This document shows positions 6,664-55,509 of a stretch of DNA of 64,000 nucleotides, in pieces. The DNA is taken from the sequence record NC_054916.1. One strand, 5' to 3'. The position numbers and the translations under genes were made by a program. Within the stretch, counting starts at the first letter, position 1; each line of letters opens with the position of its first letter. Source of the stretch: Escherichia phage vB_EcoM-G28. Under the pieces are notes generated by a model, which did no database searches, had not been told where the DNA came from, and saw nothing but the letters and a program-made list of their open reading frames with translations.

Positions 6664-7352
6664 ATTATAAATTAATATATGATAATTTAATTAATAGAGC
6701 CCAGAATCGGGCTCGCCTTAATGGATACACTGAAACACATCATATAATTCCTAGATGTATGGGTGGTACAAATGATAAGTGTAATTTAGTAGAACTAACG
6801 GCTGAAGAACATTTTATAGCCCATAAACTTTTAGCTAAAATTCATCCAAACCATTACGGTATAATTAAAGCTGTTATATGTATGGGGATGAATTCAAATA
6901 CTCATGAAAGACACGTCAATAAATCTTACGCATGGGAACGTCGTAAAATGGCAGAACTTCAATCCGGCGAAGGTAATCCATTTTACGGAAAACACCATAC
7001 GGAAGAACATAAACAATATATGTCAAAACTCATGAAAAGTCGTCCAATTACATGGGGAAATAAAATTAGTAAAACTAAAAGAATGAACCCAACGAAATGG
7101 ACTGAAGAAGCTAAAAGATTACATTCAATCAATCAATCGGGTAAAAATAACGGCATGTATGGAAGGAAACATTCCGCTAAATCTATTCAGAAAATTAAAG
7201 ATAACATGCCAGATAATTCAGGAGCTAATAACCCAGCTGCTAAACCTATAGAAGTAAATGGTGTTAAGTATAAATGTATGAAAGATGCTTCTAAAGCTAC
7301 TGGATTATCAATGTACAAACTAAGAATACTTAGAAAAACAGTTAATTTATAA
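6660..7352 (+). CDS. Free-standing HNH homing endonuclease (mob-like), apparent TTG start overlapping the uvsW stop
   Basis: HNH motif HHIIPRCMGG...NLVELTAEEHFIAH; repeated NUMOD-like GxxHxxExK segments; N-terminus paralogous to the nrdA-nrdB HNH ORF. Confidence 0.75.
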   Translation: MNYKLIYDNLINRAQNRARLNGYTETHHIIPRCMGGTNDKCNLVELTAEEHFIAHKLLAKIHPNHYGIIKAVICMGMNSNTHERHVNKSYAWERRKMAELQSGEGNPFYGKHHTEEHKQYMSKLMKSRPITWGNKISKTKRMNPTKWTEEAKRLHSINQSGKNNGMYGRKHSAKSIQKIKDNMPDNSGANNPAAKPIEVNGVKYKCMKDASKATGLSMYKLRILRKTVNL

Positions 7353-16231: not shown

Positions 16232-16261
16232 ATTATAACACAACACGAGGGACTTGTAAAC
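16232..16261 (-). promoter_or_regulatory. Early sigma70-type promoter (-35 GTTTACA, 17-nt spacer, extended -10 TGTTATAAT)
   Basis: Read on minus strand; part of a 54-bp sequence repeated identically at 31723 and 32074. Confidence 0.55.
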
Positions 16262-18318
16262 TATATTTTGAACTTTTTAGACATTTCGTTGATGTTAACC
16301 AAAGAAGCCAAGATTTGAGAAACTTCGTTTTCCTCTTCTTTTGATTCTTCTACAAGGAATTGATTAAATCCAGCCATTGGACGAACTTCACCAGTTTCCA
16401 TTAGATGGTCGCCATCATATACCGATTCTTCTAACTGTTCAGAAGGAGGAACGATTGTGCCTTCGATTAGATACTTGTTATAAGCAGTTTCTTTCATCAT
16501 GTACGTACTCACTTTATTAATCTTCAGCAAAATTCCACGCGGTAGAATAACTTCAGCTTCTGATGGAAATCCTGATAAATGACCTGGAACGATAACTTTG
16601 ATTCGCTCAGCTCCTTTAATTACCATACCCGCGCTAGTTTCAGCATCTTCATTGGCATACGTAGAATGACTGCCCATATGCATCAAATCTTCAGCATCAA
16701 CTGAACCTTCTCCTTCACCAGAAAATACTGTGCCGGAATCATCTAGAGCCATATAGTTTTTACCATACTCACCGAAGATATTTGGTTTAAGCGATGTGGA
16801 TACGAAGTTCTTGAAGTAGAACATTTTATTTTCAATATTATGACGTAAAGTTTTAAAGGTAACTTCTTGTCCACGGTAAAGTGTAGTTCCTGGAGGAAGA
16901 ACTGATCCTTTGGCAAAGGCAGAATCCATTGTCTCGATGTGTTTAATAGCTCGTTCCATATATTCTTCACGGGTAGAATCCGGTTTACCTAAAAGGAACG
17001 AGTTCATTTCAACATATGAATCTGCACAATAATCTTCAATTACATCAGACTCAGCTTGAGTTAATCCTTTTGGAGTTACTTCAGTACTTGCATATTCATA
17101 CGCTTGAGAAGCAGACTCATTAATCAATTTATAAATGCCATTCATGACAAATTGAACAATAGCTACCTTTTCATCTGGTGTAGCTTTAGAACCTTTAACT
17201 AAATCATTGACGATTTTCTTAATAACATCAAAGCTATTAGAAATATTAATGTCAGCAAGATCACTTAAAATTTTATCAGTTTTATAATCAAAAAATTCTT
17301 TATTCTTTAAATATTCTTGAGAACCTTGATATGATATATCGCTCTGTAACTTGATAGATGGATCACGTAAACGCGCATGAGCCAATGCAATATGATTTCG
17401 GAAGCTTTCTAATTCATAATCGCTAGATTTAAAACGGGAAGCACTTCTCATACCACCGATAGCTCCTTTGCTGAAGTTTGAACCAACCTGAATAACGCCA
17501 GAGTTCATTGGTCCTTCTGCTTTATATACCGGAACTTTAGATTCAAACTCTTGATATTTCTTAGCAGCGAAGCTATCACCCTGAAGTGAAGCATCGACAG
17601 TAGAATATTGAGCTTGTGCTGCTAATCGACGACTAATTTTAGTTTTCTGAATAACAGCTTGATCCGTACGCTTATCATTTTCTAAAGCAATAGAAGCAGC
17701 AACAGCAACAGCTTTAGGAACAGCATTGCCTGTTTTAACATCTACATAAACATCACCAACCTTTGATTCAACTTTTGTGAATAACTCAGTTGAAATAGGA
17801 GGTACACCTGGAATGTCTTCTAAATTGGCATTTTTACGGTAAACCATAATATATGCATATTTCTTATCATAGTCCCAGATTTCCTTTAAAAGAACATATC
17901 GACCTGCTCCTTTAGTACGTACTAAACGGTCGGCAATAACTTGCATTTGACGAGCTGCACCGTTTGTTTTACTCTTTAGTACGCGGAATAAGCATGCGTC
18001 AATTTTGTACTGTTTCATTGTCTGAAGAGCAGTATCAAAAACCGCATTAATAACACCAATTGGATTTCCACCCAAGTTTTTAAGTTTAACGAGCGATAGT
18101 TTCTCATTAACACCTATCATTACGATATGCATCATTTTATCGCCTGGCTTAACGTTTTTATTTGTATCACCGCCAGAGGTGTATGTACAAAATCTAAATC
18201 CAGGAAGCACGCTTTCTTCACCGGCTTGAATAGCAAAAATTTGAGGTATTTTATGCTTAGGATTTAAGTTAACAACCGGCGCCGAAGCGCCGTCAAATAA
18301 TTCTGTAATAAGTTCCAT
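16261..18318 (-). CDS. Alt-family ADP-ribosyltransferase paralogue (685 aa)
   Basis: R-S-E ART motifs (LYRG, VSTSL, EAEVILPRG); N-terminus MELITELFD shared with adjacent paralogue. Confidence 0.8.
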   Translation of the reverse strand: MELITELFDGASAPVVNLNPKHKIPQIFAIQAGEESVLPGFRFCTYTSGGDTNKNVKPGDKMMHIVMIGVNEKLSLVKLKNLGGNPIGVINAVFDTALQTMKQYKIDACLFRVLKSKTNGAARQMQVIADRLVRTKGAGRYVLLKEIWDYDKKYAYIMVYRKNANLEDIPGVPPISTELFTKVESKVGDVYVDVKTGNAVPKAVAVAASIALENDKRTDQAVIQKTKISRRLAAQAQYSTVDASLQGDSFAAKKYQEFESKVPVYKAEGPMNSGVIQVGSNFSKGAIGGMRSASRFKSSDYELESFRNHIALAHARLRDPSIKLQSDISYQGSQEYLKNKEFFDYKTDKILSDLADINISNSFDVIKKIVNDLVKGSKATPDEKVAIVQFVMNGIYKLINESASQAYEYASTEVTPKGLTQAESDVIEDYCADSYVEMNSFLLGKPDSTREEYMERAIKHIETMDSAFAKGSVLPPGTTLYRGQEVTFKTLRHNIENKMFYFKNFVSTSLKPNIFGEYGKNYMALDDSGTVFSGEGEGSVDAEDLMHMGSHSTYANEDAETSAGMVIKGAERIKVIVPGHLSGFPSEAEVILPRGILLKINKVSTYMMKETAYNKYLIEGTIVPPSEQLEESVYDGDHLMETGEVRPMAGFNQFLVEESKEEENEVSQILASLVNINEMSKKFKI

Positions 18319-18321
18319 GAT

Positions 18322-20418
18322 TTATCCTTGAACGAACTTGTAAGGCATGTTTGTAATATCTATGCAAGACGCAATAATTCCAAGAGATGATTCTACTTTC
18401 TGTTTAACATTTGATGAAACAAATGATGCAAAGTCAACTCTGTCTTCTATTTCAATATCACCTGTCATTGCAATTACTTCACCAGTTTCCATTAGACGGT
18501 CACCGTCATAAATTACTGATTCGGTGAGTTCTTCCGTAGTCATAACTTCAGCTTGAATGAGTTTTGTATTATTAGATGTTGTTCCGTCATTATTAGAAGC
18601 ATCAGTTATTTTATTAACTTTGACCATCAATCCGCGTGGTAGAATAACTTCAGCTTCTGTTGCTATTCCGAGACTTCCTGGATATACAACATTAACTTTA
18701 TGAGCTCCATCAATTGCCCATCCTATTTGAACTTTAACGTATTCAGGATTTTCTTTATACGCTCTTATTTCGTTTGGATTAATAGTTATTCCTTCTTCAT
18801 TTTTATCAACTGTTAATTCATTACGAGCTTCTGGTTCTAAAAGACCAATGCCAGCATGTGTAATTCCAAAACGCCCAAAAATGATAGGAGTTAAAGAAGT
18901 AGATACAAAATTTCTGAAATAGAACACTTTATTTTTAACTAGCGCTTCGTATATAGGAGCAGTCATACTTTGAGCACGATAAACTGTAATGCTTTCTGGT
19001 ATACGGTCACCGTTTTCAAAAGCTGAATCTAAGTTATTTATAGCAGATTCAATTTCTTTTTCACTCATTACATCATATCGTTCTGGATTGTAGCGTCCTA
19101 AAAGAAGATTATTGATGTCAGTATATCCTGAACCGCAATACTCTCTAATGCCGCGCTTTTGTGATGGAGTATATTTAGAACCATCACGGGCAATAGTAAT
19201 ATCAATCATTGGACCTGCACCAATTCCAGAAAAACTATAAATCATTCGTTTGATGAATTTAGTTTTTGCTGCGTTCCAGGAATTTTTAGTTATTTCTTCC
19301 CAGACTTCATCTGGCTGCCCTTTACGAGTTTTATTATGTTTATCAAGCCAAGTATCTTTATATTCTTCAAAGAATTTATTAATAGCTGCTGCATACTTCT
19401 CTAAACATTTTATTGAAGTAGTTGGTTCATTTTTGATCGCGTTAAAAATTACGTCTTTAATTTTTTCAGAAACTTCATTAACCTCACTTTTTGAAAAGAA
19501 TTTATAATCATAGTGAAGTTCATCTGCAGTTCCTTCGGCAATAATTTTTGCTGCTTTAGTTTTAGAAGCTAATGAATTAATTCCAAGCTTCATTTCTTCT
19601 GCTTCGGGAATTAAAGGAGCGGTAGCAGGTTTATTGAAATTAGCTGCGGTAGATTCATACTTCTGGAATAATTCGCTTTCAAATCTAGAAGATTCCAATG
19701 ACTGACTTTGCGCAATTGCTCTACGGGAAATTTTAACTTTAACGATTACAGCTTGGTCAGAACGTTTATCATTTTCTTGCGCAATAGATGCAGCAATTGC
19801 CTCATTTTTAGTTACTTGAGCTCCAGTATCTTTATTGATATAAACATCGCCGACTTTCGATTCAACTTTAGTAAAGAGCTCGGTACTAATTTCCGGAACT
19901 CCTGGAATGTCTTCTAGTGATACATTTTTGCGATGTATAAGAATATATGCATACTTTTTATCATAATCCCAGAGTTCCTTAAGAAGGACGTATCTGCCAC
20001 CTGAACGACTACGGATAAGTCTATCAGCAATAACTTGAATTTGTTGAGCTTGACCAGCAGTTTTAGACTTAAGAATACGGAGCATACAGGCATCAATTTT
20101 ATACTGACGCATCGTCTGCATTGCAACAGTAAAAACTGAATTGATATAATTAATTGGGCTTGGACCAAGACCTTTTAATTTGGCAATTGAACCTTTAGCA
20201 GTTAATGTAAAAGGAACAATATGCATCATTTTATCGCCCATTTTTAAATCGCGATTAGTATCACCTCCAGATGTATAGGTACATAAACGAAAGCCCGGTT
20301 GTTCAATTGCATCATCAACGTGAACTGAAAAAATTTGTGGTATTTTCTTCTTTGGATTTAAGTTTGTAATCGGAAGAGTAGTATCTTCGTCAAATAATTC
20401 TGTAATGAGTTCCATCAT
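18322..20418 (-). CDS. alt: Alt ADP-ribosyltransferase (698 aa), copy adjacent to the ligase side
   Basis: R-S-E motifs (VYRAQ, VSTSL, EAEVILPRG); late promoter upstream; synteny next to gene 30 region. Confidence 0.8.
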   Translation of the reverse strand: MMELITELFDEDTTLPITNLNPKKKIPQIFSVHVDDAIEQPGFRLCTYTSGGDTNRDLKMGDKMMHIVPFTLTAKGSIAKLKGLGPSPINYINSVFTVAMQTMRQYKIDACMLRILKSKTAGQAQQIQVIADRLIRSRSGGRYVLLKELWDYDKKYAYILIHRKNVSLEDIPGVPEISTELFTKVESKVGDVYINKDTGAQVTKNEAIAASIAQENDKRSDQAVIVKVKISRRAIAQSQSLESSRFESELFQKYESTAANFNKPATAPLIPEAEEMKLGINSLASKTKAAKIIAEGTADELHYDYKFFSKSEVNEVSEKIKDVIFNAIKNEPTTSIKCLEKYAAAINKFFEEYKDTWLDKHNKTRKGQPDEVWEEITKNSWNAAKTKFIKRMIYSFSGIGAGPMIDITIARDGSKYTPSQKRGIREYCGSGYTDINNLLLGRYNPERYDVMSEKEIESAINNLDSAFENGDRIPESITVYRAQSMTAPIYEALVKNKVFYFRNFVSTSLTPIIFGRFGITHAGIGLLEPEARNELTVDKNEEGITINPNEIRAYKENPEYVKVQIGWAIDGAHKVNVVYPGSLGIATEAEVILPRGLMVKVNKITDASNNDGTTSNNTKLIQAEVMTTEELTESVIYDGDRLMETGEVIAMTGDIEIEDRVDFASFVSSNVKQKVESSLGIIASCIDITNMPYKFVQG

Positions 20419-34926: not shown

Positions 34927-35657
34927 TAATTTTTCCTCTTTAAAATTCTGCCGCGTTTCCAACCTGGCGGTATAATATCATCTTTACCTATAAGCGTGCA
35001 TTCACTTCCATTATTAATCCATTTCTTACCGCGGATTCCTTTATAATCTCTTGGTTGTATTTTGTCAAACTTTGCATCAAGTTGATATGCCCAACGAAAT
35101 CCATAGGCATATTGAAATTTACCCTCAGCACAATATTTGATATTTGACCCGTTTCCATTAACTGATCTGGACGCTGCCGCAATAGAGTGAAAGGTTTCTA
35201 TGAAATCCCCATCTAATGAGAATTTATGTATTTCGATAGATGGGCATGCATACCTATTCACGTTTGATACATGTTGTTTAGTTTCGTTTTTATGATGCTT
35301 GCCTAACATTCCTCTAGGATGAGGATTATTTTTCCAATATTTCTTAAAGAAATCAGAATTAGCTTTAGCAAATAATTTTCTGTGCAAGCTATACAATCTG
35401 TTATTAATTCTATTACCAGCTTTATCTGTTGCCATTAACGTTAACGCAGAGGCAAGACCAAAATGGCCTTCATTTATCTTGCATAGTAATAGATGCGCTA
35501 TAAAATGTTCTCTAGCTGTTAATTCAACTAAATTTTCTTTATCATCAGAACCTCCCATGCATTTAGGGACTATATGATGTGTCTCTTTATATTCGGATAA
35601 AGGTTCCCGAGCCTGAGCTCGGGAAATTAGATCATTATAGATTTTTTGATAATTCAT
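34926..35657 (-). CDS. mobE: Free-standing HNH homing endonuclease between nrdA and nrdB (mobE-like)
   Basis: 243 aa; HNH motif HHIVPKCMGG...NLVELTAREHFIAH; stop overlaps nrdB start (TAATG). Confidence 0.75.
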   Translation of the reverse strand: MNYQKIYNDLISRAQAREPLSEYKETHHIVPKCMGGSDDKENLVELTAREHFIAHLLLCKINEGHFGLASALTLMATDKAGNRINNRLYSLHRKLFAKANSDFFKKYWKNNPHPRGMLGKHHKNETKQHVSNVNRYACPSIEIHKFSLDGDFIETFHSIAAASRSVNGNGSNIKYCAEGKFQYAYGFRWAYQLDAKFDKIQPRDYKGIRGKKWINNGSECTLIGKDDIIPPGWKRGRILKRKN

Positions 35658-38478: not shown

Positions 38479-38790
38479 TTATACCGCCATTTTTCCTTTC
38501 AAGACACCGTGGGATTGATAATCTTTGAGAACGAAATCTTTAGGTCTAAGTTTAAGAACATATTTTAATTGTTCTTTAGTAGAAAGATATCGGAATTTAT
38601 AAGGTAGACCACTTATTACCAGCTCACAAAGCTCTTTAGGTTCACGCCTCAAAATTTCTTTACATTGTTCTACGTGATTCATATAGATATGAGTATTACC
38701 ACCAGAAAATATCAAATCTCCTGGAATAAGATTACACATCTTAGCTACAATATGAACTAACGTAGCATATGATGCAATATTAAACGGTAG
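38479..38790 (-). CDS. td: Thymidylate synthase, exon 2 (103 codons)
   Basis: Continues TS sequence after splice junction ...FLG|LPFNIASYAT; exon 1 plus exon 2 give 286 aa. Confidence 0.9.
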   Translation of the reverse strand, partial: LPFNIASYATLVHIVAKMCNLIPGDLIFSGGNTHIYMNHVEQCKEILRREPKELCELVISGLPYKFRYLSTKEQLKYVLKLRPKDFVLKDYQSHGVLKGKMAV

Positions 38791-39235
38791 CATTATGTTC
38801 AGATAAGGTCGTTAATCTTACCCCGGAATTATATCCAGCTGCATGTCACCATGCAGATCAGACTATATCTCCAACTTGTTAAAGCAAGTTGTCTATCGTT
38901 TCGAGTCACTTGACCCTACTCCCCAAAGGGATAGTCGTTAGGCATTTATGTAGAACCAATTCCATTTATCAGATTTTACACGATAAGTAACTAATCCAGA
39001 CGAAATTTTAAAATGCCTTTTCCATCTCTTTTCAAAATCTTTAGCACTTCCTACATATACTTTATTGTTTAAAGTATTTTTAATCTGATAAATTCCGCTT
39101 TTCATAAATACCTCTTTAAATATAGAAGTATTATTAAAGGGCAGTCCTACAATTTAGCACGGGATTGTCTACTAGAGAGGTTCCCCGTTTAGATAGATTA
39201 CAAGTATAAGTCACCTTATACTCAGGCCTCAATTA
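38791..39235 (-). ncRNA. Group I self-splicing intron in td (445 nt), with internally deleted homing-endonuclease ORF
   Basis: Begins UAAUUGAGGCCUGAGUAUAAGGUG and ends ...GAACAUAAUG as in the T4 td intron; interrupts an otherwise continuous TS reading frame. Confidence 0.85.
38938..39105 (-). pseudogene. I-TevI remnant: 55-codon ORF fusing the GIY-YIG N-terminus to the C-terminal tail
   Basis: MKSGIYQIKNTLNNKVYVGSAKDFEKRWKRHFK joined directly to ISSGLVTYRVKSDKWNWFYINA; too short for a functional GIY-YIG enzyme. Confidence 0.75.
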
Positions 39236-40607
<1,372 letters not shown>

Positions 40608-42610: not shown

Positions 42611-42680
42611 TTTTATTTCCTTTTTAATTTAATTAACAGTTGGTGCTATGACGATGTATGACCTCATAGCTGGTCAGTGA
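42611..42680 (-). promoter_or_regulatory. Gene 32 translational operator (A/U-rich UUAAA repeats before the start codon)
   Basis: Minus strand reads UUAAUUAAAUUAAAAAGGAAAUAAAAAUG, the autoregulatory leader of T4 gene 32. Confidence 0.6.
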
Positions 42681-42693
42681 GATAATTATAATC

Positions 42694-42701
42694 TATTTAT
42701 A
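42694..42701 (-). promoter_or_regulatory. Late promoter element TATAAATA upstream of gene 32
   Basis: Exact octamer on minus strand about 80 nt upstream of the ATG. Confidence 0.45.
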
Positions 42702-42709
42702 ATAAGCAA

Positions 42710-44975: not shown

Positions 44976-47900
44976 ATGGCCGAGATTAAAAGAAAGTTCA
45001 GAGCAGAAGATGGTCTGGACGCAGGTGGCGATAAAATAATCAACGTAGCTTTAGCTGATCGTGCCGTAGGAACTGACGGTGTTAACGTTGATTACCTAAT
45101 TCAAGAAAACACAGTTCAACAATACGATCCAACTCGTGGATATTTAAAAGATTTTGTAATCATTTATGATAACCGCTTTTGGGCTGCTATAAATGATATT
45201 CCAAAACCAGCAGGAGCTTTTAATAGTGTACGCTGGAGAGCATTACGTACTGATGCTAATTGGACAACTGTTTCATCAGGACCTTATCAATTAAAGTCAG
45301 GCGAATCAATTTCAGTTGATACTGCAGCTGGTAATGACATTACATTTACTTTACCATCTTCTCCAATTGATGGAGATACTATCGTTCTTCAAGATATTGG
45401 TGGAAAACCTGGTGTTAACCAAGTTTTAATTACAGCTCCGGTGCAAAGCATTGTAAATTTTAGAGGTCAGCAAGTACGATCAGTACTAATGACTCATCCA
45501 AAATCACAGATAGTTTTAATTTTTAGTAATCGTCTGTGGCAAATGTATGTTGCTGATTATAGTAGAGAAGCTGTAGTCGTAACACCGGCAAGTCTTTATC
45601 AGGCGCAATCTAACGATTTTATCGTGCGCAGATTTACTTCTGCTTCAGCAATTAATATTAAACTTCCAAGATTTGCTAATCATGGCGATATTATTAATTT
45701 CGTTGATTTAGATAAACTGAATCCACTTTATCATACAATTGTTACTACATACGATGAAACTACTTCAATACAAGAAGATGGAACTCATTCTATTGAAGGT
45801 CGTACATCGATTGATGGTTTCTTAATGTATGATGATAATGAAAAATTGTGGAGATTGTTTGACGGGGATAGTAAAGCACGTTTACGTATTATAACAACTA
45901 ATTCTAGTATTCGTCCAAATGAAGAAGTTATGGTATTTGGAGCAAATAACGGAACAACCCAAACAATTGAACTTCAGCTTCCAACCGATATTTCCATTGG
46001 TGATACTGTTAAAATTTCCATGAATTATATGAGAAAAGGACAAACAGTTAAAATCAAAGCTGCCGGTGAAGATAAAATTGCTTCTTCAGTTCAATTGCTG
46101 CAATTCCCAAAACGTTCAGAGTATCCGCCTGAAACTAAATGGGTGACTGTTCAAGAATTAGTTTTTAACGGCGAAACTAATTATGTTCCAGTTTTACAGC
46201 TTGCTTACATAGAAGATTCTGATGGAAAATACTGGGTTGTGCAACAAAACGTTCCAACAGTTGAAAGAGTTGATTCTTTAAATGATTCTACTAGAGCAAG
46301 ATTAGGCGTAATAGCTTTAGCTACACAAGCTCAAGCAAATGCTGATTTAGAAAATTCTCCGCAAAAAGAATTAGCAATTACACCAGAAACATTAGCTAAC
46401 CGTACTGCTACAGAAACTCGTAGAGGTATCGCAAGAATAGCAACTACTGCCCAAGTGAACCAGGATACTACATTCTCTTTTGCTGATGATATTATCATCA
46501 CTCCTAAAAAGCTGAATGAAAGAACTGCTACAGAAACTCGTAGAGGTGTTGCTGAAATTGCGACGCAGCAAGAAACTAACGCAGGTACTGATGATACTAC
46601 AATCATCACTCCTAAAAAGCTTCAAGCTCGACAAGGTTCTGAATCATTATCTGGTATTGTAACCTTTGTATCTACTGCAGGAGCTACTCCAGCTTCTAGC
46701 CGTGAATTAAATGGTACAAACGTTTATAATAAAAACACTAATAATTTAGTTGTTTCGCCTAAAGCTTTGGATCAGTATAAAGCTACTCCAACCCAACAAG
46801 GTGCAGTAATTTTAGCAGTTGAAAGTGAAGTAATTGCTGGACAGAGTCAAGAAGGATGGGCAAATGCGGTTGTAACGCCAGAAACGTTACATAAAAAGAC
46901 ATCAACTGATGCAAGAATTGGTTTAATTGAAATTGCTACGCAAAGTGAAGTTAATACAGGAACTGATTATACTCGCGCAGTCACTCCTAAAACTTTAAAT
47001 GACCGTAAAGCAACTGAAAGTTTAAGTGGTATAGCTGAAATTGCTACGCAAGTTGAATTCGACGCAGGCGTCGACGATACTCGTATCTCTACACCATTAA
47101 AAATTAAAACCAGATTTAATAGTACTGATCGTACTTCTGTTGTTGCTCTATCTGGATTAGTTGAATCAGGAACTCTCTGGGACCATTATACCCTTAATAT
47201 TCTTGAAGCAAATGAGACACAACGTGGTACACTTCGTGTAGCTACACAAGTTGAAGCTGCTGCAGGAACATTAGATAATGTTTTAATAACTCCTAAAAAG
47301 CTTTTAGGTACTAAATCTACTGAAGCACAGGAAGGCGTTATTAAAGTTGCAACTCAGTCTGAAACTGTAGCTGGAACGTCAGCAAATACTGCTGTATCTC
47401 CAAAAAATTTAAAATGGATTGTGCAGAGTGAACCTACTTGGGCAGCTACTACCCTGGTAAGAGGTTTTGTTAAAACTTCATCTGGTTCAATTACATTCGT
47501 TGGTAATGATACAGTTGGTTCAACACAGTCATTAGAATTATACGAGAAAAATAGCTATGCAGTATCACCATATGAATTAAACCGTGTATTAGCAAATTAT
47601 TTGCCGTTAAAAGCAAAAGCCGTAGATAGTAATTTACTGGATGGTCTAGATTCATCTCAGTTCATTCGTAGGGATATTGCACAAACGGTTAATGGTTCAC
47701 TAACCTTAACACAACAAACGAATCTGAGTGCCCCTCTTGTATCATCTAGTACTGCTACGTTTGGTGGATCAGTTTCAGCAAATAGTACACTAACCATTTC
47801 TAATACTGATGGAATAGCAACTCGTCTGATTTTTGAGAAAGGACCTCAAACTGGAACGAACCCGGCTCAAACGATGACAGTCAGCGTGTGGGGGAATCAA

Positions 47901-48848
47901 TTTAGTGGGGAATCAAACACAACACGTTCTACCGTATTTGAAGTTAGTGATGAAACATCTTATCACTTTTATTCTCAACGCGATAAAGATGGTAATATAG
48001 CATTTAGCATTAATGGTACTGTAATGCCAATAAATGTGAATGCTTTAGGTTCTTTGAACGCGAACGGCGTTGCAACATTTGGTAGTTCAGTTACTGCTAA
48101 TGGCGAATTTATCAGTAAATCGTCGAATGCTTTTAGAGCAATAAACGGTGATTATGGATTCTTTATTCGTAATGATGCTGCTAACACCTATTTTATGCTT
48201 ACTGCATCTGGTGATCAGACTGGTGGATTTAATGGATTACGTCCATTATCAATTAATAATCAATCTGGTCAGGTTACAATTGGTGAAAGCTTAATCATTG
48301 CCAAAGGTGCTACTATAACTTCAGGTGGTTTAACTGTCAACTCGAGAATTCGTTCTCAAGGTACTAAAACTGCTGACCTATACACCCGTGCACCAACATC
48401 TGATACTGTAGGATTCTGGTCAATTGACATTAATGATTCAGCTACTTATAACCAGTTCCCGGGTTATTTTAAAATGGTTGAAAAAACTAATGAAGTGACT
48501 GGACTTCCATACTTAGAACGTGGCGAAGAAGTTAAATCTCCTGGTACGCTGACTCAGTTTGGTAACACACTCGATTCGCTTTACCAAGATTGGATTACTT
48601 ATCCAACGACCCCAGAAGCGCGCACCACTCGCTGGACGCGTACATGGCAGAAAACCAAAAACTCTTGGTCAAGTTTTGTTCAGGTATTTGATGGGGGTAA
48701 CCCTCCTCAGCCATCTGATATCGGTGCTTTACCATCTGATAATGCTATAATGGGGAATCTTACTATTCGTGATTTCTTACGAATTGGTAATGTTCGCATT
48801 ATTCCTGACCCAGTGAATAAAACGGTTAAATTTGAATGGGTTGAATAA
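44976..48848 (+). CDS. 34: Long tail fibre proximal subunit gp34
   Basis: 1290 aa with internal TPKKL-type repeats; synteny. Confidence 0.92.
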   Translation: MAEIKRKFRAEDGLDAGGDKIINVALADRAVGTDGVNVDYLIQENTVQQYDPTRGYLKDFVIIYDNRFWAAINDIPKPAGAFNSVRWRALRTDANWTTVSSGPYQLKSGESISVDTAAGNDITFTLPSSPIDGDTIVLQDIGGKPGVNQVLITAPVQSIVNFRGQQVRSVLMTHPKSQIVLIFSNRLWQMYVADYSREAVVVTPASLYQAQSNDFIVRRFTSASAINIKLPRFANHGDIINFVDLDKLNPLYHTIVTTYDETTSIQEDGTHSIEGRTSIDGFLMYDDNEKLWRLFDGDSKARLRIITTNSSIRPNEEVMVFGANNGTTQTIELQLPTDISIGDTVKISMNYMRKGQTVKIKAAGEDKIASSVQLLQFPKRSEYPPETKWVTVQELVFNGETNYVPVLQLAYIEDSDGKYWVVQQNVPTVERVDSLNDSTRARLGVIALATQAQANADLENSPQKELAITPETLANRTATETRRGIARIATTAQVNQDTTFSFADDIIITPKKLNERTATETRRGVAEIATQQETNAGTDDTTIITPKKLQARQGSESLSGIVTFVSTAGATPASSRELNGTNVYNKNTNNLVVSPKALDQYKATPTQQGAVILAVESEVIAGQSQEGWANAVVTPETLHKKTSTDARIGLIEIATQSEVNTGTDYTRAVTPKTLNDRKATESLSGIAEIATQVEFDAGVDDTRISTPLKIKTRFNSTDRTSVVALSGLVESGTLWDHYTLNILEANETQRGTLRVATQVEAAAGTLDNVLITPKKLLGTKSTEAQEGVIKVATQSETVAGTSANTAVSPKNLKWIVQSEPTWAATTLVRGFVKTSSGSITFVGNDTVGSTQSLELYEKNSYAVSPYELNRVLANYLPLKAKAVDSNLLDGLDSSQFIRRDIAQTVNGSLTLTQQTNLSAPLVSSSTATFGGSVSANSTLTISNTDGIATRLIFEKGPQTGTNPAQTMTVSVWGNQFSGESNTTRSTVFEVSDETSYHFYSQRDKDGNIAFSINGTVMPINVNALGSLNANGVATFGSSVTANGEFISKSSNAFRAINGDYGFFIRNDAANTYFMLTASGDQTGGFNGLRPLSINNQSGQVTIGESLIIAKGATITSGGLTVNSRIRSQGTKTADLYTRAPTSDTVGFWSIDINDSATYNQFPGYFKMVEKTNEVTGLPYLERGEEVKSPGTLTQFGNTLDSLYQDWITYPTTPEARTTRWTRTWQKTKNSWSSFVQVFDGGNPPQPSDIGALPSDNAIMGNLTIRDFLRIGNVRIIPDPVNKTVKFEWVE

Positions 48849-48856
48849 GAGGTATT

Positions 48857-49972
48857 ATGGAAAAATTTATGGCAGAGTTTGGACAAGGATATGTCCAAAC
48901 GCCATTTTTATCGGAAAGTAATTCAGTAAGATATAAAATAAGTATAGCGGGTTCTTGCCCTCTTTCTGCAGCAGGACCATATGTTAAATTTCAGGATAAT
49001 CCTATCGGAAGCCAAACATTTAACGCAGGTCTTCATTTAAGAGTTTTTGACCCTTCTACAGGAGCATTAGTTGATAGTAAGTCATATGCTTTTTCGACTT
49101 CAAACGATACTACATCAGCTGCTTTTGTCAGTTTCATGAATTCTTTTTCAAACAACAGACTTGTTGCTATATTAACCAGTGGAAAGGTTAATTTTCCTCC
49201 TGAAGTAGTATCTTGGCTAAGAACCGCAGGAACGTCTGCTTTTCCATCTGATTCTATATTGTCAAGATTTGACGTATCATATGCCGCTTTTTACACTTCT
49301 TCTAAAAGAGCTATTGCATTAGAACATGTTAAACTAAGTAATAGAAAAAGTACAGACGATTATCAAACTATTTTAGATGTTGTATTTGACAGTTTAGAAG
49401 ACGTTGGAGCTACAGGATTTCCTAAAAGAACATATGAAAGTGTTGAGCAATTTATGTCAGCGGTTGGTGGAACTAATAACGAAATTGCACGTTTACCAAC
49501 TTCATCCGCGATAAGTAAACTCTCTGATTATAATTTAATTCCTGGCGATGTTCTTTATCTTAAAGCACAGTTATATGCTGATGCCGATTTACTTGCTCTT
49601 GGAACTACAAATATATCTATCCGTTTTTATGATGAATCGAATGGATATATTTCTTCAACACATGCTGAGTTTACTGGACAAGCTGGGTCATGGGAATTAA
49701 AGGAAGATTATGTAGTTATTCCAGAAACCGCAGCGGGATTTACAATATATGCACAAAGAACTGCTCAAGCTGGTCAAGGTGGCATGAGAAATTTAAGCTT
49801 TTCTGAAGTATCAAGAAATGGCGGAATTTCAAAACCTGCTGAATTTGGCGTCAATGGCATTCGAGTTAATTATGTCTGTGAATCTGCTTCACCTCCAGAT
49901 ATAATGGTACTTCCTACGCAAGCATCGTCTAAAACTGGTAAAGTGTTTGGACAAGAATTTAGAGAAGTTTAA
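48857..49972 (+). CDS. 35: Long tail fibre hinge protein gp35
   Basis: 371 aa; synteny. Confidence 0.8.
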   Translation: MEKFMAEFGQGYVQTPFLSESNSVRYKISIAGSCPLSAAGPYVKFQDNPIGSQTFNAGLHLRVFDPSTGALVDSKSYAFSTSNDTTSAAFVSFMNSFSNNRLVAILTSGKVNFPPEVVSWLRTAGTSAFPSDSILSRFDVSYAAFYTSSKRAIALEHVKLSNRKSTDDYQTILDVVFDSLEDVGATGFPKRTYESVEQFMSAVGGTNNEIARLPTSSAISKLSDYNLIPGDVLYLKAQLYADADLLALGTTNISIRFYDESNGYISSTHAEFTGQAGSWELKEDYVVIPETAAGFTIYAQRTAQAGQGGMRNLSFSEVSRNGGISKPAEFGVNGIRVNYVCESASPPDIMVLPTQASSKTGKVFGQEFREV

Positions 49973-50003: not shown

Positions 50004-50011
50004 TATAAATA
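50004..50011 (+). promoter_or_regulatory. Late promoter TATAAATA for genes 36-38
   Basis: Exact octamer about 24 nt upstream of the gene 36 ATG. Confidence 0.65.
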
Positions 50012-50034: not shown

Positions 50035-50691
50035 ATGGCTGATTTAAAAGTAGGTTCAACAACTGGAGGCTCTGTCATTTGGCATCAAGGAAATTTTCCA
50101 TTGAATCCAGCCGGTGACGATGTACTCTATAAATCATTTAAAATATATTCAGAATACAATAAACCACAAGCTGCTGATAACGATTTCGTTTCTAAAGCTA
50201 ATGGTGGTACTTATTTAAATAGAGTAATTTTTAATAATGGAATAACGATTCCATTAGCAAGTAATTCTGGAAATGGTATATATCCTGGTAATGATGATGG
50301 AGCAACATTTGATACTACAAATATGGATATTGTTTCGTGGTATGGTATTGGTTTTAAATCATCACAAGGAACAGCAGGTAGAACTGTAGTAATTAACACG
50401 CGAAATGGAGATATTAGCTCAAAGGGTGTAATTGAAGCATCACAAATACGCGCAACTTCATTATCTCCAGTAAATAATTATGACCTTACAAGGAAAGATT
50501 ATGTTGATGGAGCAATAAATATTGTTACAGCAAACGCAAACTCTAGAGTATTACGCTCTGGAGATACTATGACAGGAAATTTAACTGCGCCAAACCTTTT
50601 TTCACAGAATCCTGCATCTCAACCTTCGCATGTTCCACGATTTGATCAAATTGTTATTAAGGATTCTGTTCAAGATTTCGGCTATTATTAA
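50035..50691 (+). CDS. 36: Long tail fibre distal connector gp36
   Basis: 218 aa; synteny. Confidence 0.8.
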   Translation: MADLKVGSTTGGSVIWHQGNFPLNPAGDDVLYKSFKIYSEYNKPQAADNDFVSKANGGTYLNRVIFNNGITIPLASNSGNGIYPGNDDGATFDTTNMDIVSWYGIGFKSSQGTAGRTVVINTRNGDISSKGVIEASQIRATSLSPVNNYDLTRKDYVDGAINIVTANANSRVLRSGDTMTGNLTAPNLFSQNPASQPSHVPRFDQIVIKDSVQDFGYY

Positions 50692-50699
50692 GAGGACTT

Positions 50700-53600
50700 A
50701 TGGCTACTTTAAAACAAATACAATTTAAAAGAAGCAAAACTGCAGGAGCACGTCCTGCCGCTTCAGTATTAGCCGAAGGTGAATTGGCTATAAACTTAAA
50801 AGACCGCGTACTTTTTACTAAAGACGACCAAGGAAATATTATTGATCTGGGTTTTGCTAAAGGCGGTAGCATTGACGGGAATGTTATTCATACAGGAAAC
50901 TATAATCAAACTGGTGATTATACTTTAAATGGCACTTTCACTCAGACAGGTAATTTTAATTTAACTGGTATTGCTCGAGTAACTCGCGATATTATTGCCG
51001 CCGGGCAGATTATGACCGAAGGCGGAGAACTTATTACAAAAAGTTCAGGTACAGCACATGTTCGTTTTCATGATTCAGCTGATCGTGAACGTGGAATCAT
51101 TTATGCCCCGGCTAATGATGGATTAACTACGCAAGTAGTTAATATCCGCGTTCAAGACTACGCCGCTGGTGATGAAAGCACCTATGCATTTTCAGGCAGT
51201 GGCCTATTTACTTCACCTGAAGTATCAGCATGGAAATCTATGTCAACTCCTCAGATTTTGACAAATAGAGTTATTACTAATAATAAATCTACGAGCGATT
51301 ATGACATTTATTCTATGGCAGACAACGTTCCATTGTCTGAAAGCACTACTGCTATTAATCATCTCCGTGTTATGCGCAATGCTGTAGGCGCTGGTGTATT
51401 CCATGAAGTTAAAGATAATGATGGAATAACTTGGTATACTGGAGATGGCTTAGACACTTATCTTTGGTCGTTTACCTGGTCCGGTGGATTGAAAGCAGGC
51501 CATTCTATTTCTGTTGGTACTCCTGGTGGCAATAAAGGATACTCTGAATTAGGGACTGCTTCAATTTCTCTTGGCGATAATGATACCGGGCTAAAATGGC
51601 ATCAGGATGGATATTATTTCAGCGTCAATAATGGAACGAAAACATTTTTATTTAGCCCTAGCGAAACAACTAGCCTAAGAAAATTTGTAGCTGGATATTC
51701 TACTAATGGAACAGATTTAACTACTCCTCCGACTGAAAACTATGCATTAGCCACTGTTGTTACTTACCATGATAATAACGCGTATGGTGACGGTCAAACT
51801 CTTTTAGGTTATTATCAGGGCGGTAATTATCACCACTATTTCCGCGGTAAGGGTACTACAAACATTAATACTCATGGCGGTTTGTTAGTTACTCCAGGCA
51901 ATATTGACGTTATTGGTGGTTCGGTTAATATTGATGGTCGTAATAATGCTTCTACGCTGTTGTTTAGAGGTAACACAACTGGTGCTAGTTCAGTTGATAA
52001 TATGACAATTTCTGTATGGGGTAATACCTTTACTAATCCTAGTGTAGGTAATCGTAAAAACGTTATGGAAATTTCTGACGCAACTAGTTGGATGAGCTAT
52101 ATTCAAAGACTTACTACCGGTGAAGTAGAAATGAACGTCAATGGTTCATTTGAATCATCTGGTGTTACTGCTGGAAATAGAGGAGTTCACACAACAGGCG
52201 AAATTTCATCTGGAGCAGTGAATGCGCTTCGCATTTGGAACGCAGATTATGGAGCCATTTTTAGACGTTCAGAAGGCAGTCTTCATATTATTCCAACTGC
52301 TTACGGTGAAGGTAAACATGGTGATATCGGTCCACTTCGCCCGTTTAGTATGGCTTTAGATACCGGTAAAGTTACTATTCCAGATTTACAATCAAGTTAC
52401 AATACGTTTGCTGCTAACGGTTATATTAAATTTGTTGGTCATGGAGCGGGTGCCGGCGGTTATGACATTCAATATGCTCAAGCGGCTCCTATTTTCCAGG
52501 AAATTGATGATGATGCTATAAGCAAATATTATCCTATTGTTAAACAGAAGTTTTTAAACGGTAAATGCGTTTGGTCTTTAGGTACTGAAATTAATTCGGG
52601 TACATTTGTTTTACACCATATCAAAGAAGATGGATCACAAGGCCATACATCTCGTTTTAATCAAGACGGCACAGTTAATTTCCCTGATAATGTTCAGGTT
52701 GGTGGTGGTGAAGCTACTATTGCTCGCAATGGTAACATCTGGTCTGATATCTGGAAAACGTTTACTTCTGCCGGTGATACTACAAATATTCGCGATGCTA
52801 TTGCGACTCGTGTTTCGAAAGAAGGCGACACGATGACTGGCAAATTAATCGTTAAAAGAGACTCCGACGCTATTAACTTAGCTGCGCCTTCAGCGACTGA
52901 TGCAAGTTACCTTCTTTCTACTGGCGGTGGAGAAAATCAATGGTATATTGGTAAAGGCGGCGCTGATAATACCGTATCATTTTACAACTATAAAACCAAT
53001 GGGGCTGTGCAAATTAACTCTATTGGTGAAATCGCGCTGATTCCACAAGGTGCTGCAACATTTAACTTTAACCGCGATCGTCTCCATATAAATGGGACTC
53101 AATGGACTGCACATCAAGCTGGTGACTGGGTTAACCAATGGCATCAAGAAGCTCCTATATTTGTGGATTTTGGTAGTGTCGGCAATGACTGCTATTATCC
53201 TATTATTAAAGGAAAATCTGTTATTACGAATGAAGGATACGTATCTGGTGTTGATTTCGGTATGCGCCGTATCACTAACCAATGGGCTCAGGCTATTATC
53301 CGTGTTGGTAACCAGGAAAATGCTAGCGATCCGCAAGCTATCTTCGAATTCCACCATAATGGAAACATGTACGTTCCTGACATGGTTAAAGCTGGAGTAA
53401 GATTATCAGCTGGTGGAGGTGACCCTGCATGGACAGGCGCATGTGTTGTTATTGGTGATAATGACACTGGGTTAGTTCATGGCGGTGATGGACGAATTAA
53501 CATGGTTGCAAATGGAGTGCATATTGCTTCATGGTCGTCCGCTTACCATCTCCATGAAGGTCTTTGGGATACTACTGGTGCTTTGTGGACTGAACACGGA

Positions 53601-54014
53601 AGAGCTATTATTTCTTTTGGTCATTTAATCCAACAAAGCGATGCCTATTCCACATTTGTCCGCGATGTTTATGTCCGTTCTGATATTCGTGTTAAAAAAG
53701 ACCTTGTTAAATTTGAAAATGCTTCTGAGAAGCTTTCTAAAATTAACGGTTACACTTATATGCAGAAGCGAGGCCTAGATGAAGAAGGCAATCAGAAATG
53801 GGAACCTAACGCCGGTTTGATAGCTCAAGAAGTTCAAGCTATTTTGCCTGAATTAGTTGAAGGTGACCCTGATGGCGAAGCTTTACTTCGTTTGAACTAT
53901 AACGGTGTAATTGGTTTAAATACGGCTGCAATCAATGAGCATACTGCAGAAATTGCGGAACTTAAATCAGAAATTGAAGAACTTAAAGCATTAGTTAAAT
54001 CATTGTTAAAATAA
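50700..54014 (+). CDS. 37: Long tail fibre distal subunit gp37 (1104 aa) with C-terminal intramolecular-chaperone-type domain
   Basis: Synteny; C-terminal ~110 aa resembles self-cleaving chaperone domains of T2-type fibres. Confidence 0.88.
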
Positions 54015-54033
54015 TAAGAGGGACTTCGGCCCC

Positions 54034-54822
54034 TTGGAGGTTTATATGGCAGTAACAGGACCGTGGGTAGGATCGTCTGCAGTAGTTAATACAGGACAAA
54101 ATTGGATGAGTGGCGCGGCCCAACGATTAAGAATGGGTGCTCCATTTTGGATGAGTAATATGATAGGTCGATCTGTTGAAGTAATTCATACGCTTGGAGC
54201 AGACCATAACTTCAATGGCCAATGGTTCCGAGATAGATGTTTTGAGGCAGGTAGTGCACCTATAGTGTTTAATATTACTGGAGATTTAGTATCATATTCT
54301 AAAGATGTTCCTTTATTCTTTATGTATGGAGATACACCGAATGAATATGTTCAATTGAATATACATGGTGTAACGATGTATGGCCGTGGCGGTAATGGCG
54401 GTAGCAATAGTCCTGGCTCAGCTGGGGGTCATTGTATTCAAAATGATATTGGTGGGAGACTAAGAATTAATAATGGCGGAGCTATTGCTGGCGGCGGTGG
54501 CGGCGGCGGCGGCGGATATTATTCTCCTTTTTCACAAATGAGATTGACCTTTGGCGGTGGTGGCGGTCGTCCGTTTGGCGCGCCGGGCGGATCTATTGAT
54601 ATGCAATCAGGAGCAACTGCTGGTACTATTTCTGCACCAGGCTCAGGGTCTGTGAACGGTATCTATAGCGGCGGGTCTGGTGGTGAAGTTGGCTCCGCAG
54701 GAGGTAGATGTAATATTCGTGGTCAAGGATCTGAATACGATGGCGGAGCTGCTGGTTATGCCGTCATAGGGTCTACGCCGACGTGGCAAAACGTTGGAGC
54801 AATATATGGTCCAAGAGTATAA
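54034..54822 (+). CDS. 38: Receptor-recognising adhesin gp38, T2/T6 type
   Basis: 262 aa with glycine-rich motifs ([39 protein letters not shown]) separating variable segments. Confidence 0.85.
54490..54516 (+). repeat. (GGC)n trinucleotide tract encoding Gly9 inside gp38
   Basis: ggc ggc ggt ggc ggc ggc ggc ggc gga, in frame. Confidence 0.85.
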
Positions 54823-54852
54823 TTTGAATAAATATCCTTAAAAGGAGGGTCT

Positions 54853-55509
54853 ATGGCAGCACCTAGAATATCATTTTCGCCCTCTGATATTCTGTTGGGT
54901 GTTCTAGATCGCTTGTTCAAAGATAACGCTACCGGGAAGGTTCTTGCTTCCCGAGTAGCTGTCGTAATTCTTTTATTTATGATGGCGATTGTTTGGTATA
55001 GGGGAGATAGTTTCTTTGAGTACTATAAGCAATCAAAGTATGAAACATACAGTGAAATTATTGAAAAGGAAAGAAATGCACGCTTTGAATCTGTCGCCCT
55101 GGAACAACTCCAGATAGTTCATATATCATCTGAGGCAGACTTTAGTGCGGTGTATTCTTTCCGCCCTAAAAACTTAAACTATTTTGTTGATATTATAGCA
55201 TATGAAGGAAAATTACCTTCAACAATAAGCGAAAAATCACTCGGAGGATATCCTGTTGATAAAACTATGGATGAATATACAGTTCATTTAAATGGACGTC
55301 ATTATTATTCCGACTCAAAATTTGCTTTTTTGCCAACTAAAAAGCCTACTCCCGAAATAAATTACATGTACAGTTGTCCATATTTTAATTTGGATAATAT
55401 CTATGCTGGAACAATAACCATGTACTGGTATAGAAATGATCATATAAGTAATGACCGCCTTGAATCAATATGTGCTCAGGCGGCCAGAATATTAGGAAGG
55501 GCTAAATAA
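54853..55509 (+). CDS. t: Holin T
   Basis: 218 aa; single TM segment; sequence recognised as T4 holin. Confidence 0.92.
   Translation: MAAPRISFSPSDILLGVLDRLFKDNATGKVLASRVAVVILLFMMAIVWYRGDSFFEYYKQSKYETYSEIIEKERNARFESVALEQLQIVHISSEADFSAVYSFRPKNLNYFVDIIAYEGKLPSTISEKSLGGYPVDKTMDEYTVHLNGRHYYSDSKFAFLPTKKPTPEINYMYSCPYFNLDNIYAGTITMYWYRNDHISNDRLESICAQAARILGRAK

Follow-up and report, generated by a model that had tools for sequence, protein, structure and literature searches.

The gene 37–38 region of Escherichia phage vB_EcoM-G28: a distal tail-fibre and adhesin cassette with a glycine-codon tract of conserved length

Results

Genes 37 and 38

We analysed a stretch of 64,000 nucleotides (nt) of Escherichia phage vB_EcoM-G28 (NC_054916.1), a Tequatrovirus of 170,121 bp, and concentrated on genes 37 and 38, which are co-oriented on the + strand at 50700-54822 of that stretch (the whole of which is called the window below). 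This region very probably encodes the distal part of the long tail fibre and its adhesin as one Tequatrovirus cassette, following the adhesin design of T2, T6 and S16. The two genes are:

50700..54014, + strand: gene 37, long tail fibre distal subunit, 1104 amino acids (aa) plus stop, from the listing of open reading frames (ORFs); protein AVH86079.1 / YP_010069810.1
54046..54822, + strand: gene 38, predicted receptor-recognising adhesin, 258 aa plus stop, with Pfam GP38 and Gp38_N; protein AVH86080.1

Gene 37 extends from an ATG at 50700 to a stop at 54012-54014, with a second TAA immediately 3'. An earlier sequence-only reading of the window had called a gp37 of 1104 aa, and that ORF is present at 50700-54014 on the + strand; next come an ORF that stops at 54822 and the holin gene t. 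The same reading gave gp38 262 aa; the end at 54822 stands, but the length most likely does not. The 262-aa ORF results from a mechanical TTG start at 54034, a codon that itself lies within the Shine-Dalgarno stretch TTGGAGG. The core of that stretch was read directly:

54036..54040, + strand: Shine-Dalgarno GGAGG of gene 38, 5 nt 5' of the ATG at 54046

Because the TTG is inside the Shine-Dalgarno stretch, and because the spacing of the GGAGG agrees with the annotation of the gp38 orthologues in RB27 and NiC89, and of gp38 in vB_EcoM-G28 itself, from the equivalent ATG (258 aa), the sequence most likely places the start of gene 38 at ATG 54046 and not at TTG 54034. The deposited gp37 (AVH86079.1 / YP_010069810.1) and gp38 (AVH86080.1 / YP_010069811.1) of vB_EcoM-G28 match our translations end to end. 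GenBank names gp37 'hypothetical protein G28_00253', versus 'long tail fiber protein distal subunit' in RefSeq.

gp38 resembles the adhesins of T2, T6 and S16

gp38 matched Pfam GP38 (PF05268) over profile positions 1-218 of 218 (E 1.7e-71, 241 bits versus a cut-off of 25) and Gp38_N (PF21721) over positions 1-40 of 40 (E 8.5e-22, 77.3 bits versus a cut-off of 25). Compared with solved structures, it aligned over its full length (residues 1-255, E 4e-53) with 6F45_D, the receptor-recognition protein in the gp37-gp38 tip complex of S16, and it also matched 9V85, the receptor-binding domain of PP01 gp38 (E 8.7e-80). An AlphaFold2 model based on 52 homologues had a mean predicted local distance difference test score (pLDDT) of 89 and a predicted template-modelling score of 0.80, and when the model was searched with Foldseek against the PDB at E < 0.001, it returned 9V85 (template-modelling score, TM, 0.88) and 6F45_D (TM 0.74) alone. 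The fold predicted by the model is a beta-helix joined to a polyglycine-II (PGII) sandwich.

BLASTP of gp38 against T4 gp38 (NP_049864) gave a best E of 1.9 over 12 residues, and a separate comparison of the two found no match at E up to 10. Judged by its sequence, gp38 would be an adhesin of the T2/T6/S16 type, encoded between gene 37 and gene t, with a partner gp37 that has a putative cleavable chaperone at its C-terminus. The sequence-only reading had proposed this T2/T6-type arrangement and had set gp38 apart from the T4 chaperone of the same name; the Pfam matches and the solved structures support it on both counts, and the finding that it had named as refuting, a gp38 that aligns with the T4-type chaperone, was not obtained. 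One result weighs against the assignment, in that no NCBIfam model names gp37 or gp38.

Glycine makes up 61 of the 258 residues of gp38, and glycine-rich motifs (GRMs) alternate with variable segments. When gp38 was aligned with its counterparts from T6, T2, RB5, RB27, FL23 and S16, five GRMs separated four hypervariable segments (HVSs) and were followed by a conserved C-terminal motif, a pattern that the sequence-only reading had recognised in outline as glycine-rich motifs flanking variable segments. The invariant glycine columns of the homologues are located in the GRMs. The resulting map, drawn from the alignment except where another source is given, is:

54046..54165, + strand: attachment domain, aa 1-40, with W7, W20 and W35, of the RB27/S16 type and not the T6/RB5 type (PF21721 and alignment)
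54382..54402, + strand: GRM1, GRGGNGG, aa 113-119; G113, R114, G115, G116 and G118 invariant
54403..54429, + strand: HVS1, SNSPGSAGG, aa 120-128, boundaries approximate
aa 129-148 of gp38: beta-helix strand
54490..54516, + strand: GRM2 of the five-GRM scheme, nine glycine codons, aa 149-157, equivalent of PGII helix 3 (alignment; pLDDT 95-97)
54517..54552, + strand: HVS2, aa 158-169, putative distal receptor-contact loop of the T6 type (alignment; PMC3157838)
54553..54591, + strand: GRM3, aa 170-182; G170-G174, P176 and G178 invariant
54592..54669, + strand: HVS3, aa 183-208, which holds T6 G208 (alignment; PMC3157838)
54670..54705, + strand: GRM4, aa 209-220
54706..54741, + strand: HVS4, aa 221-232
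54742..54819, + strand: GRM5 (GGAAGYAV) and conserved C-terminal strand, aa 233-258

Trojet et al. assigned two T6 residues, Q167 and M168, to HVS2 and a third, G208, to HVS3 (PMC3157838). These residues land at the expected spots in our alignment, with Q167/M168 within HVS2, which supports the numbering of gp38; the sixth position of HVS2 is P in T6. Among the 52 homologues, W7 of the attachment domain never varies and W20 is conserved in at least 90%; the role of the three attachment-domain tryptophans has been described (PMC6851490).

gp37 carries a C-terminal chaperone domain with an aligned cleavage motif

Three parts of gp37 were delimited:

50700..50885, + strand: conserved N-terminal segment, aa 1-62, common to T4, T2 and T6, with the left recombination boundary at its end (blastn homology to T4 ends at 50886; protein alignment)
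53433..53678, + strand: distal tip, aa 912-993, a homologue of the S16 gp37 beta-helix tip, where gp38 is predicted to dock (phmmer against 6F45_A)
53679..54011, + strand: intramolecular chaperone domain, aa 994-1104 (111 aa), with a coiled-coil tail at its end (Pfam PF13884; alignment with the S16, T2 and T6 C-termini)

By phmmer, residues 912-1104 matched 6F45_A, the S16 gp37 fragment, with an E of 1.7e-43 and across the cleavage-site motif. Residues 994-1053 matched Peptidase_S74 (PF13884, 'chaperone of endosialidase') with an E of 1e-12 and 48.6 bits versus a cut-off of 22, in keeping with the suggestion of the sequence-only reading that gp37 ends like a self-cleaving chaperone. The motif reads DVYVR^SDIRVKK here and DLNVS^SDRRIKK in S16, and the same motif is found in T2 and T6 gp37. 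S994, with a lysine five residues on (K999; pattern S-D-x-R-x-K), aligns with the experimentally cleaved S16 site, and the pair has the S-x4-K spacing of the S74 family. Because the motif aligns with the S16 cut site, gp37 is predicted to cleave itself between R993 and S994 and to release 111 residues. Drexler et al. are said to have found in 1986 that T2 gp37 loses about 120 C-terminal residues, a number that agrees with this prediction. In S16, the cut at DLNVS^SDRRIKK releases the last 113 residues of gp37 and exposes the surface on which gp38 docks (PMC7917993).

Beyond its N-terminus, gp37 is a diverged homologue whose shaft is about 34-35% identical in aa sequence to T2 and T4 gp37. Its residues 418-561 resemble the trimerisation domain of gp34. 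The protein is 96.3% identical in aa sequence to NiC89 gp37 and 95.4% to RB27 gp37. There is one HxH motif (aa 950), and the T4 needle domain is lacking.

The cassette replaces a block of the T4 sequence

The window is colinear with T4 and 92-96% identical to it outside 50886-54828, so the earlier claim that the rest of the window resembles T4 is borne out. In blastn comparisons, nucleotide homology stops at 50886 and resumes at the following point:

54828, + strand: right boundary of the replaced block, 6 nt past the stop of gene 38 (blastn against T4)

The replaced block therefore consists of gene 37 minus its first 186 nt, plus gene 38. The best matches to the DNA of this module in the phage collection were NiC89 (94.2%), GEP001 (93.8%) and RB27 (93.6%), and at least 80% of the module was present in 116 phage records. 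Two more sequencing runs encode an identical gp38, in DNA about 98% identical to the window. The adhesin form of gp38 is described as predominant in T-even phages (PMC3157838, PMC6851490), and PMC3157838, citing Tetart 1998, describes the gene 37–38 unit as exchanged among them. Because the adhesin form predominates and 116 phage records carry the module, T4, and not vB_EcoM-G28, is the outlier at genes 37 and 38. The sequence-only reading had called the locus mosaic, which is a fair description insofar as a block is replaced relative to T4; however, T4 is the unusual member of the comparison, gp37 is of the RB27 type, and the likeness to T6 is confined to the specificity domain of gp38.

Within the block, similarity to the nearest relatives is patchy. 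The segment 51250-51500 in gene 37 is 100% identical to NiC89 and 80% to RB27, whereas 53000-53500 is 98% identical to RB27 and 89-92% to NiC89; some 250-nt windows in the block show 100% identity to NiC89 and 80% to RB27, and elsewhere the reverse holds. At the protein level, gp38 is 98.4-98.8% identical to its RB27 and NiC89 counterparts and 86% identical overall to T6 gp38. T6-like phages are without detectable nucleotide similarity to gene 37 here, and similarity rejoins within gene 38 past the attachment domain: nucleotide identity to T6 is 69% at the attachment domain and then 85-88% downstream, and T6-like phages reach 85-96%. Because identity to T6-like phages jumps in this way from 69% to 85-96%, gp38 itself consists of two modules, an attachment domain matched to an RB27/S16-type gp37 tip and a specificity domain of the T6 type.

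Smaller patches of divergence from T4 were seen upstream. Gene 36 is about 90-94% identical to T4 in nucleotide sequence except in a divergent patch at 50250-50500; that patch and 47750-48250 in gene 34 are 67-86% identical to T4 and nearer to NiC89 (98.8% at 47750-48000 and 87.6% at 50250-50500). Small-scale mosaicism therefore extends to the proximal fibre and hinge genes.

The glycine-codon tract is a structural element of fixed length

The sequence-only reading had drawn attention to a (GGC)9 tract at 54490-54516. Nine in-frame glycine codons are present there, but they are not a pure (GGC)9: in order, they are two GGC, one GGT, five GGC and a final GGA. Seven of the nine are thus GGC, with at most five in an unbroken row, (GGC)5. 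The tract scored 45 in Tandem Repeats Finder, below the program's default threshold of 50, with 8.7 copies and 91% matches.

GGC accounts for 22/61 glycine codons in gene 38 (54046-54819), for 29/132 in gene 37 and for 10/91 in gene 34 (44976-48845). The enrichment in GGC is specific to the adhesin gene.

The tract aligns with S16 gp38 151-GGGGGGGG-158. In S16, residues 151-158 form the long PGII helix 3, which lies at the centre of a polyglycine sandwich of three layers whose hydrogen-bond network is saturated (PMC6851490). In our model, the pLDDT is 95-97 over the glycine run and 82 over the HVS2 that follows it, and in PP01 the equivalent of HVS2, residues 158-170, is loop-B at the tip of the fibre (PMC12892980). 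By analogy with these structures, the Gly9 run would be a structural strand leading into the distal loop HVS2, and not the loop itself. The placement of the tract within the receptor-binding loop by the sequence-only reading does not agree with its alignment to the core PGII helix 3 of S16 gp38.

In order to see how far the length of the run varies, we compared it across relatives. The motif was found in 70 of 120 cluster representatives: 30 of these have nine glycines, including all of the nearest whatever their HVS2 type, 33 (PP01/AR1-like) have eight, and a few have seven, six or four. By gp38 lineage, the run is nine residues in T6-like proteins, eight in S16-/PP01-like proteins and seven in T2. 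Within the four nearest protein clusters, 41/44 motif-bearing members had nine glycines. In DNA, the tract was 27 nt long in 12/12 T6-like loci, among them two samples with a gp38 identical to that of the window, although it was spelled in 10 synonymous ways. These spellings include a perfect (GGC)8GGA (locus L027) and, in the two samples with identical gp38, GGT GGC GGT (GGC)5 GGA. Pattern scans that allowed gaps of 9-39 nt gave six hits, three in metagenome and three in viral contigs, every one with a gap of 27 nt; the scans required an exact match of the flanks and so missed diverged variants. The same pattern scan for tract-length variants in genome_contigs gave 0 hits. Since third positions drift while length stays constant, the comparison points to selection on length as what keeps the Gly9 run constant.

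GRMs as possible junctions for recombination

Precise in-frame loss of HVS2 was observed in the relatives L035 (1924-1990), L036 (from 738), L037 (from 572) and L038 (from 1864) and in the protein P0115, covering at least three gp38 lineages and samples.

It is possible, although less likely than not, that the glycine-codon repeats of GRM1-GRM3 act mainly as short homologies, at which recombination or misalignment swaps or deletes variable segments; they would then be junctions and not a length-variable tract. Direct repeats of 15 nt, TGGCGG(Y)GGTGGCGG, are located at 54387, 54489, 54498 and 54552 with 80-93% identity, and 15-nt near-repeats TGGCGGYGGTGGCGG connect GRM1, GRM2 and GRM3. Different HVS2 types follow an identical INNGGAIA-G9, and GRM2-GRM3 fused in frame without HVS2 is found in P0115 and, in different samples, in no fewer than three relatives (L035, L036/L037 and L038). 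The excess of GGC codons in gene 38 over gene 34 points the same way, and GRMs have been proposed as recombination sites (Tetart 1998, cited in PMC3157838 and PMC12032242). Against this stand experimental crosses, in which all crossovers fell in the flanks and there was no intra-domain exchange (PMC3157838). Moreover, deletion of HVS2 in T6 is non-viable, so the natural deletions may represent defective genomes or artefacts of assembly; the locus L035, for one, also has a much shortened gp37, of only 477 aa.

Tsx is the likely receptor

The receptor of vB_EcoM-G28 on E. coli is likely to be Tsx, because the HVS loops of its gp38 are near-identical to those of the Tsx-using RB27, RB5 and FL23/FL44. 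The protein shares HVS1, HVS2 and HVS4 unchanged with RB27, RB5 and FL23, and its HVS3 is one residue off RB27 and RB5; it falls in the same 90% cluster as RB27, FL23 and FL44. Phages with T6-like adhesins, RB27 included, all use Tsx on E. coli (Trojet et al., PMC3157838), and FL23 and FL44 are Tsx-dependent (PMC12032242).

Several observations pull away from Tsx. Two of the four aa differences between our gp38 and that of RB27 are near HVS3 and GRM4. PST gp38 differs from that of T6 by three residues and requires OmpA besides Tsx, so minor changes in the HVSs can suffice to shift or broaden the use of receptors (PMC3157838), and fPS-65, whose gp38 lies in a neighbouring cluster, has been reported to use the inner core of lipopolysaccharide (LPS) on Yersinia (PMC7917993). 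T6-like phages also plate weakly on Yersinia, a host lacking Tsx (PMC3157838), and HP3, which has the same HVS2, has been tied to OmpA and LPS (PMC8092219). It is nonetheless unlikely that another receptor, such as OmpA or the LPS core, is bound by the adhesin instead of Tsx or besides it: the adhesin shares its HVS1, HVS2 and HVS4 with RB27, RB5 and FL23, differs by a single HVS3 residue from RB5 and RB27, and RB27, RB5 and FL23 depend on Tsx on E. coli K-12.

Length change in the tract

Two departures from nine glycines were seen among relatives. A T6-like sublineage with seven glycines, spelled (GGTGGC)3GGR, was found in three sequencing runs (L024, 634-654; L025, 606-626; L026, 1906-1926). 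A search for a near-identical nine-glycine parent of these forms found nearest sequences that were just about 89-90% identical, and thus gave no sign of recent slippage. Because the seven-glycine sequences are about 89% identical to one another and to all else, the shorter run looks like one old inherited change and not recurrent slippage. In HP3 gp38 (P0142, YP_010278715.1), a frameshift lies in the tract: eight glycines are followed by RRILFSFF, which is YYSPFS in another frame, and the protein ends at 187 aa. HP3.1 gp38 (P0143) is of normal length, 260 aa. HP3 and HP3.1 were reported to differ by two single-nucleotide polymorphisms (SNPs), with no mention of a frameshift in gene 38 (PMC8092219), and gene 38 was not in the 20-kb stretch that we fetched from the permuted, unannotated HP3 record KY608967. 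Because the HP3 record is marked UNVERIFIED and the paper gives two SNPs elsewhere, faulty sequencing of a GC-rich repeat probably accounts for the HP3 frameshift.

We consider it rather doubtful that the GGY-codon repeats of GRM2 and GRM3 are mutational hot spots that yield low-frequency in-frame variants (nine to seven glycines, fusions deleting HVS2), some of them infectious on other hosts or through other receptors. If they are, populations would hold a standing pool of adhesin variants, and HVS2 deletions would be functional despite the reported non-viability in T6.

More improbable still is the view that the tract is a slippage-prone contingency repeat whose length shifts alter the receptor-binding surface and thereby host range. 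As a trinucleotide repeat, the tract has (GGC)5 as its perfect core, and the relative L027 carries a perfect (GGC)8; runs of nine, eight and seven distinguish the T6-like, S16-/PP01-like and T2 lineages; the seven-glycine sublineage occurs in three samples (L024-L026); and the HP3 protein P0142 is frameshifted in the tract. GGC fills seven of nine positions with a GGT interruption, the longest perfect run is five units, and the Tandem Repeats Finder score is 45. However, the repeat number is constant among close relatives. The sequence-only reading had named the tract a plausible hotspot for length variation, yet among natural relatives this idea mostly fails: the tract has 27 nt in 12/12 T6-like loci despite 10 spellings and in all six scan hits, and nine glycines in 41/44 members of the nearest clusters and in 30 cluster representatives. 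The seven-glycine sequences, about 89% identical to others, fit a single old change; the HP3 frameshift is probably an error in an UNVERIFIED record; and the run aligns with a core PGII helix and not a loop. T6 from which an entire GRM had been deleted gave no viable phage (PMC3157838), which also argues against free variation of the run.

Flanking genes and transcription

The following features surround the two genes:

44976-48848: gene 34, upstream of gene 37
48857-49972: gene 35, upstream of gene 37
50004..50011, + strand: TATAAATA, T4 late-promoter consensus, 24 nt 5' of gene 36 (from position and knowledge of T4)
50035..50691, + strand: gene 36, 218 aa, distal hinge connector onto which gp37 would assemble, given for context (Pfam Phage_T4_gp36, E 4.5e-31)
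54853-55509, + strand: gene t, holin, 218 aa, downstream of gene 38 (Pfam Phage_holin_T, E 2.4e-117)

The late-promoter consensus TATAAATA stands directly 5' of both gene 34 and gene 36. There are 11 copies in the window versus 9 expected, which is not above chance. From its position and what is known of T4, the copy at 50004..50011 is likely to be the start of a late transcript of genes 36, 37 and 38, and perhaps t. A hairpin of the C(UUCG)G type, GGGACUUCGGCCCC, at 54019-54032 in the 31-nt spacer between genes 37 and 38, beside the ribosome-binding site of gene 38, was considered and rejected; its stability was no better than that of shuffled sequence (z = 0.90). Rfam gave no match in the whole window at gathering thresholds. 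The mechanical ORF list also contains ORFs nested in gene 37, at 50657-50872 (- strand), 52606-52836, 52977-53357 (- strand) and 53092-53400; no search was aimed at them, and nothing indicates that they are genes.

Other differences from T4 in the window

An ORF of 230 aa at 6660-7352 (+ strand) has an HNH motif (HHIIPRCMGG...NLVELTAEEH) and 72% nucleotide similarity to T4 mobE; because it immediately follows uvsW, a position at which T4 carries no gene, it would be an extra homing-endonuclease insertion. At 16261-18318 and 18322-20418 on the - strand are two tandem full-length paralogues of Alt-like ADP-ribosyltransferases (685 and 698 aa); in T4 there is a single alt gene and, left over from an old duplication, the short alt.-1 and alt.-2. 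The td gene at 38479-39784 (- strand) is split as in T4, and the approximately 440 nt between its exons hold only a 55-aa GIY-YIG remnant of I-TevI (38938-39105); no group I intron was hit anywhere in the window at the Rfam gathering threshold. At about 34250, 34927-35488 and 42673-42709, the T4-colinear alignment passes over the nrdB intron (with I-TevIII), the region of mobE, and segG, and the content of mobile endonucleases therefore differs from that of T4.

Discussion

The closest parallels to the cassette are RB27 and NiC89, whose genes 37 and 38 have the same lengths (1104 and 258 aa) and whose module DNA is 93.6% and 94.2% identical, respectively; the differences are the patchy identity within gene 37 and four aa in gp38 relative to RB27. 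T6 and RB5 gp38 share the specificity domain, with five GRMs, four near-identical HVSs and the Gly9 run, whereas T6 gp37 (994 aa) matches gp37 here in patches only. The S16 tip complex (6F45) resembles our pair in its gp37 tip and chaperone with aligned cleavage motif, and in its gp38 with a tri-tryptophan attachment domain, a beta-helix and a PGII sandwich. In contrast, S16 gp38 is about 45% identical, has eight glycines in helix 3, a shorter HVS2 and other loops, and binds Salmonella OmpC. PP01 gp38 (9V85) is the best structural neighbour of our model (TM 0.88, root-mean-square deviation 2.3 A, 67% identity), and its loop-B (158-170) corresponds to HVS2 here, but its HVS sequences are different, its glycine run is eight long and its receptor is OmpC of O157. 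The chaperones of endosialidase and T5 pb1 (PF13884, MEROPS S74) likewise form a C-terminal domain that opens with Ser-Asp, has a Lys five residues on, and lies behind a trimeric beta-helix. There, cleavage bares a receptor-binding tip, whereas in gp37 here it is predicted to uncover the docking site for gp38.

T4 agrees in the genome position of the two genes, in the first 62 residues of gp37 and in a shaft that is a distant homologue (35% identity over aa 1-640). It departs in that its 183-aa gp38 is an assembly chaperone without relation to gp38 here, and its gp37 itself binds the receptor and has no Peptidase_S74. That the locus of vB_EcoM-G28 nevertheless follows the T4 arrangement, with gp38 merely an assembly chaperone and the gp37 tip binding the receptor, is hardly credible: synteny alone speaks for it (a gene between gene 37 and gene t, as T4 gene 38), against the lack of sequence similarity to T4 gp38, the strong adhesin family and structure matches, and a gp37 that has no T4 needle domain, a single HxH (aa 950) and an intramolecular chaperone at its end.

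For the T2/T6/S16 adhesin design that we prefer, the following sequence of events is envisaged. Genes 36, 37 and 38 would be expressed late, and gp37 would trimerise into a beta-helical fibre with the aid of its own C-terminal chaperone of 111 residues. Self-excision of the chaperone between R993 and S994 would bare a flat trimeric tip, on which a single gp38 monomer may dock via an N-terminal three-helix bundle carrying W7, W20 and W35. In the C-terminal part of gp38, a beta-helix would be followed by a three-layer polyglycine-II sandwich built from the GRMs, whose long central helix is presumably the nine-glycine run that leads into HVS2, and the variable segments would form the distal receptor-binding loops. 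As these loops are near-identical to those of RB27, RB5 and FL23/FL44, the Tsx nucleoside channel would be the most likely receptor on E. coli K-12 and B.

Much of this is established for the T-even phages. Work going back to the 1980s has described gene order, both families of protein, the chaperone that cleaves itself, the polyglycine sandwich and cassette exchange. Solved structures followed in 2018 and 2026, and RefSeq already contains exactly these proteins. The practical value of the analysis is one of annotation: it offers a prediction of Tsx as receptor, and it gives cassette boundaries, at 50886 and 54828, for host-range engineering. It also provides a GGC repeat in a host-range gene whose length is constant while its third positions drift, and this cautions against calling every coding trinucleotide run a contingency locus.

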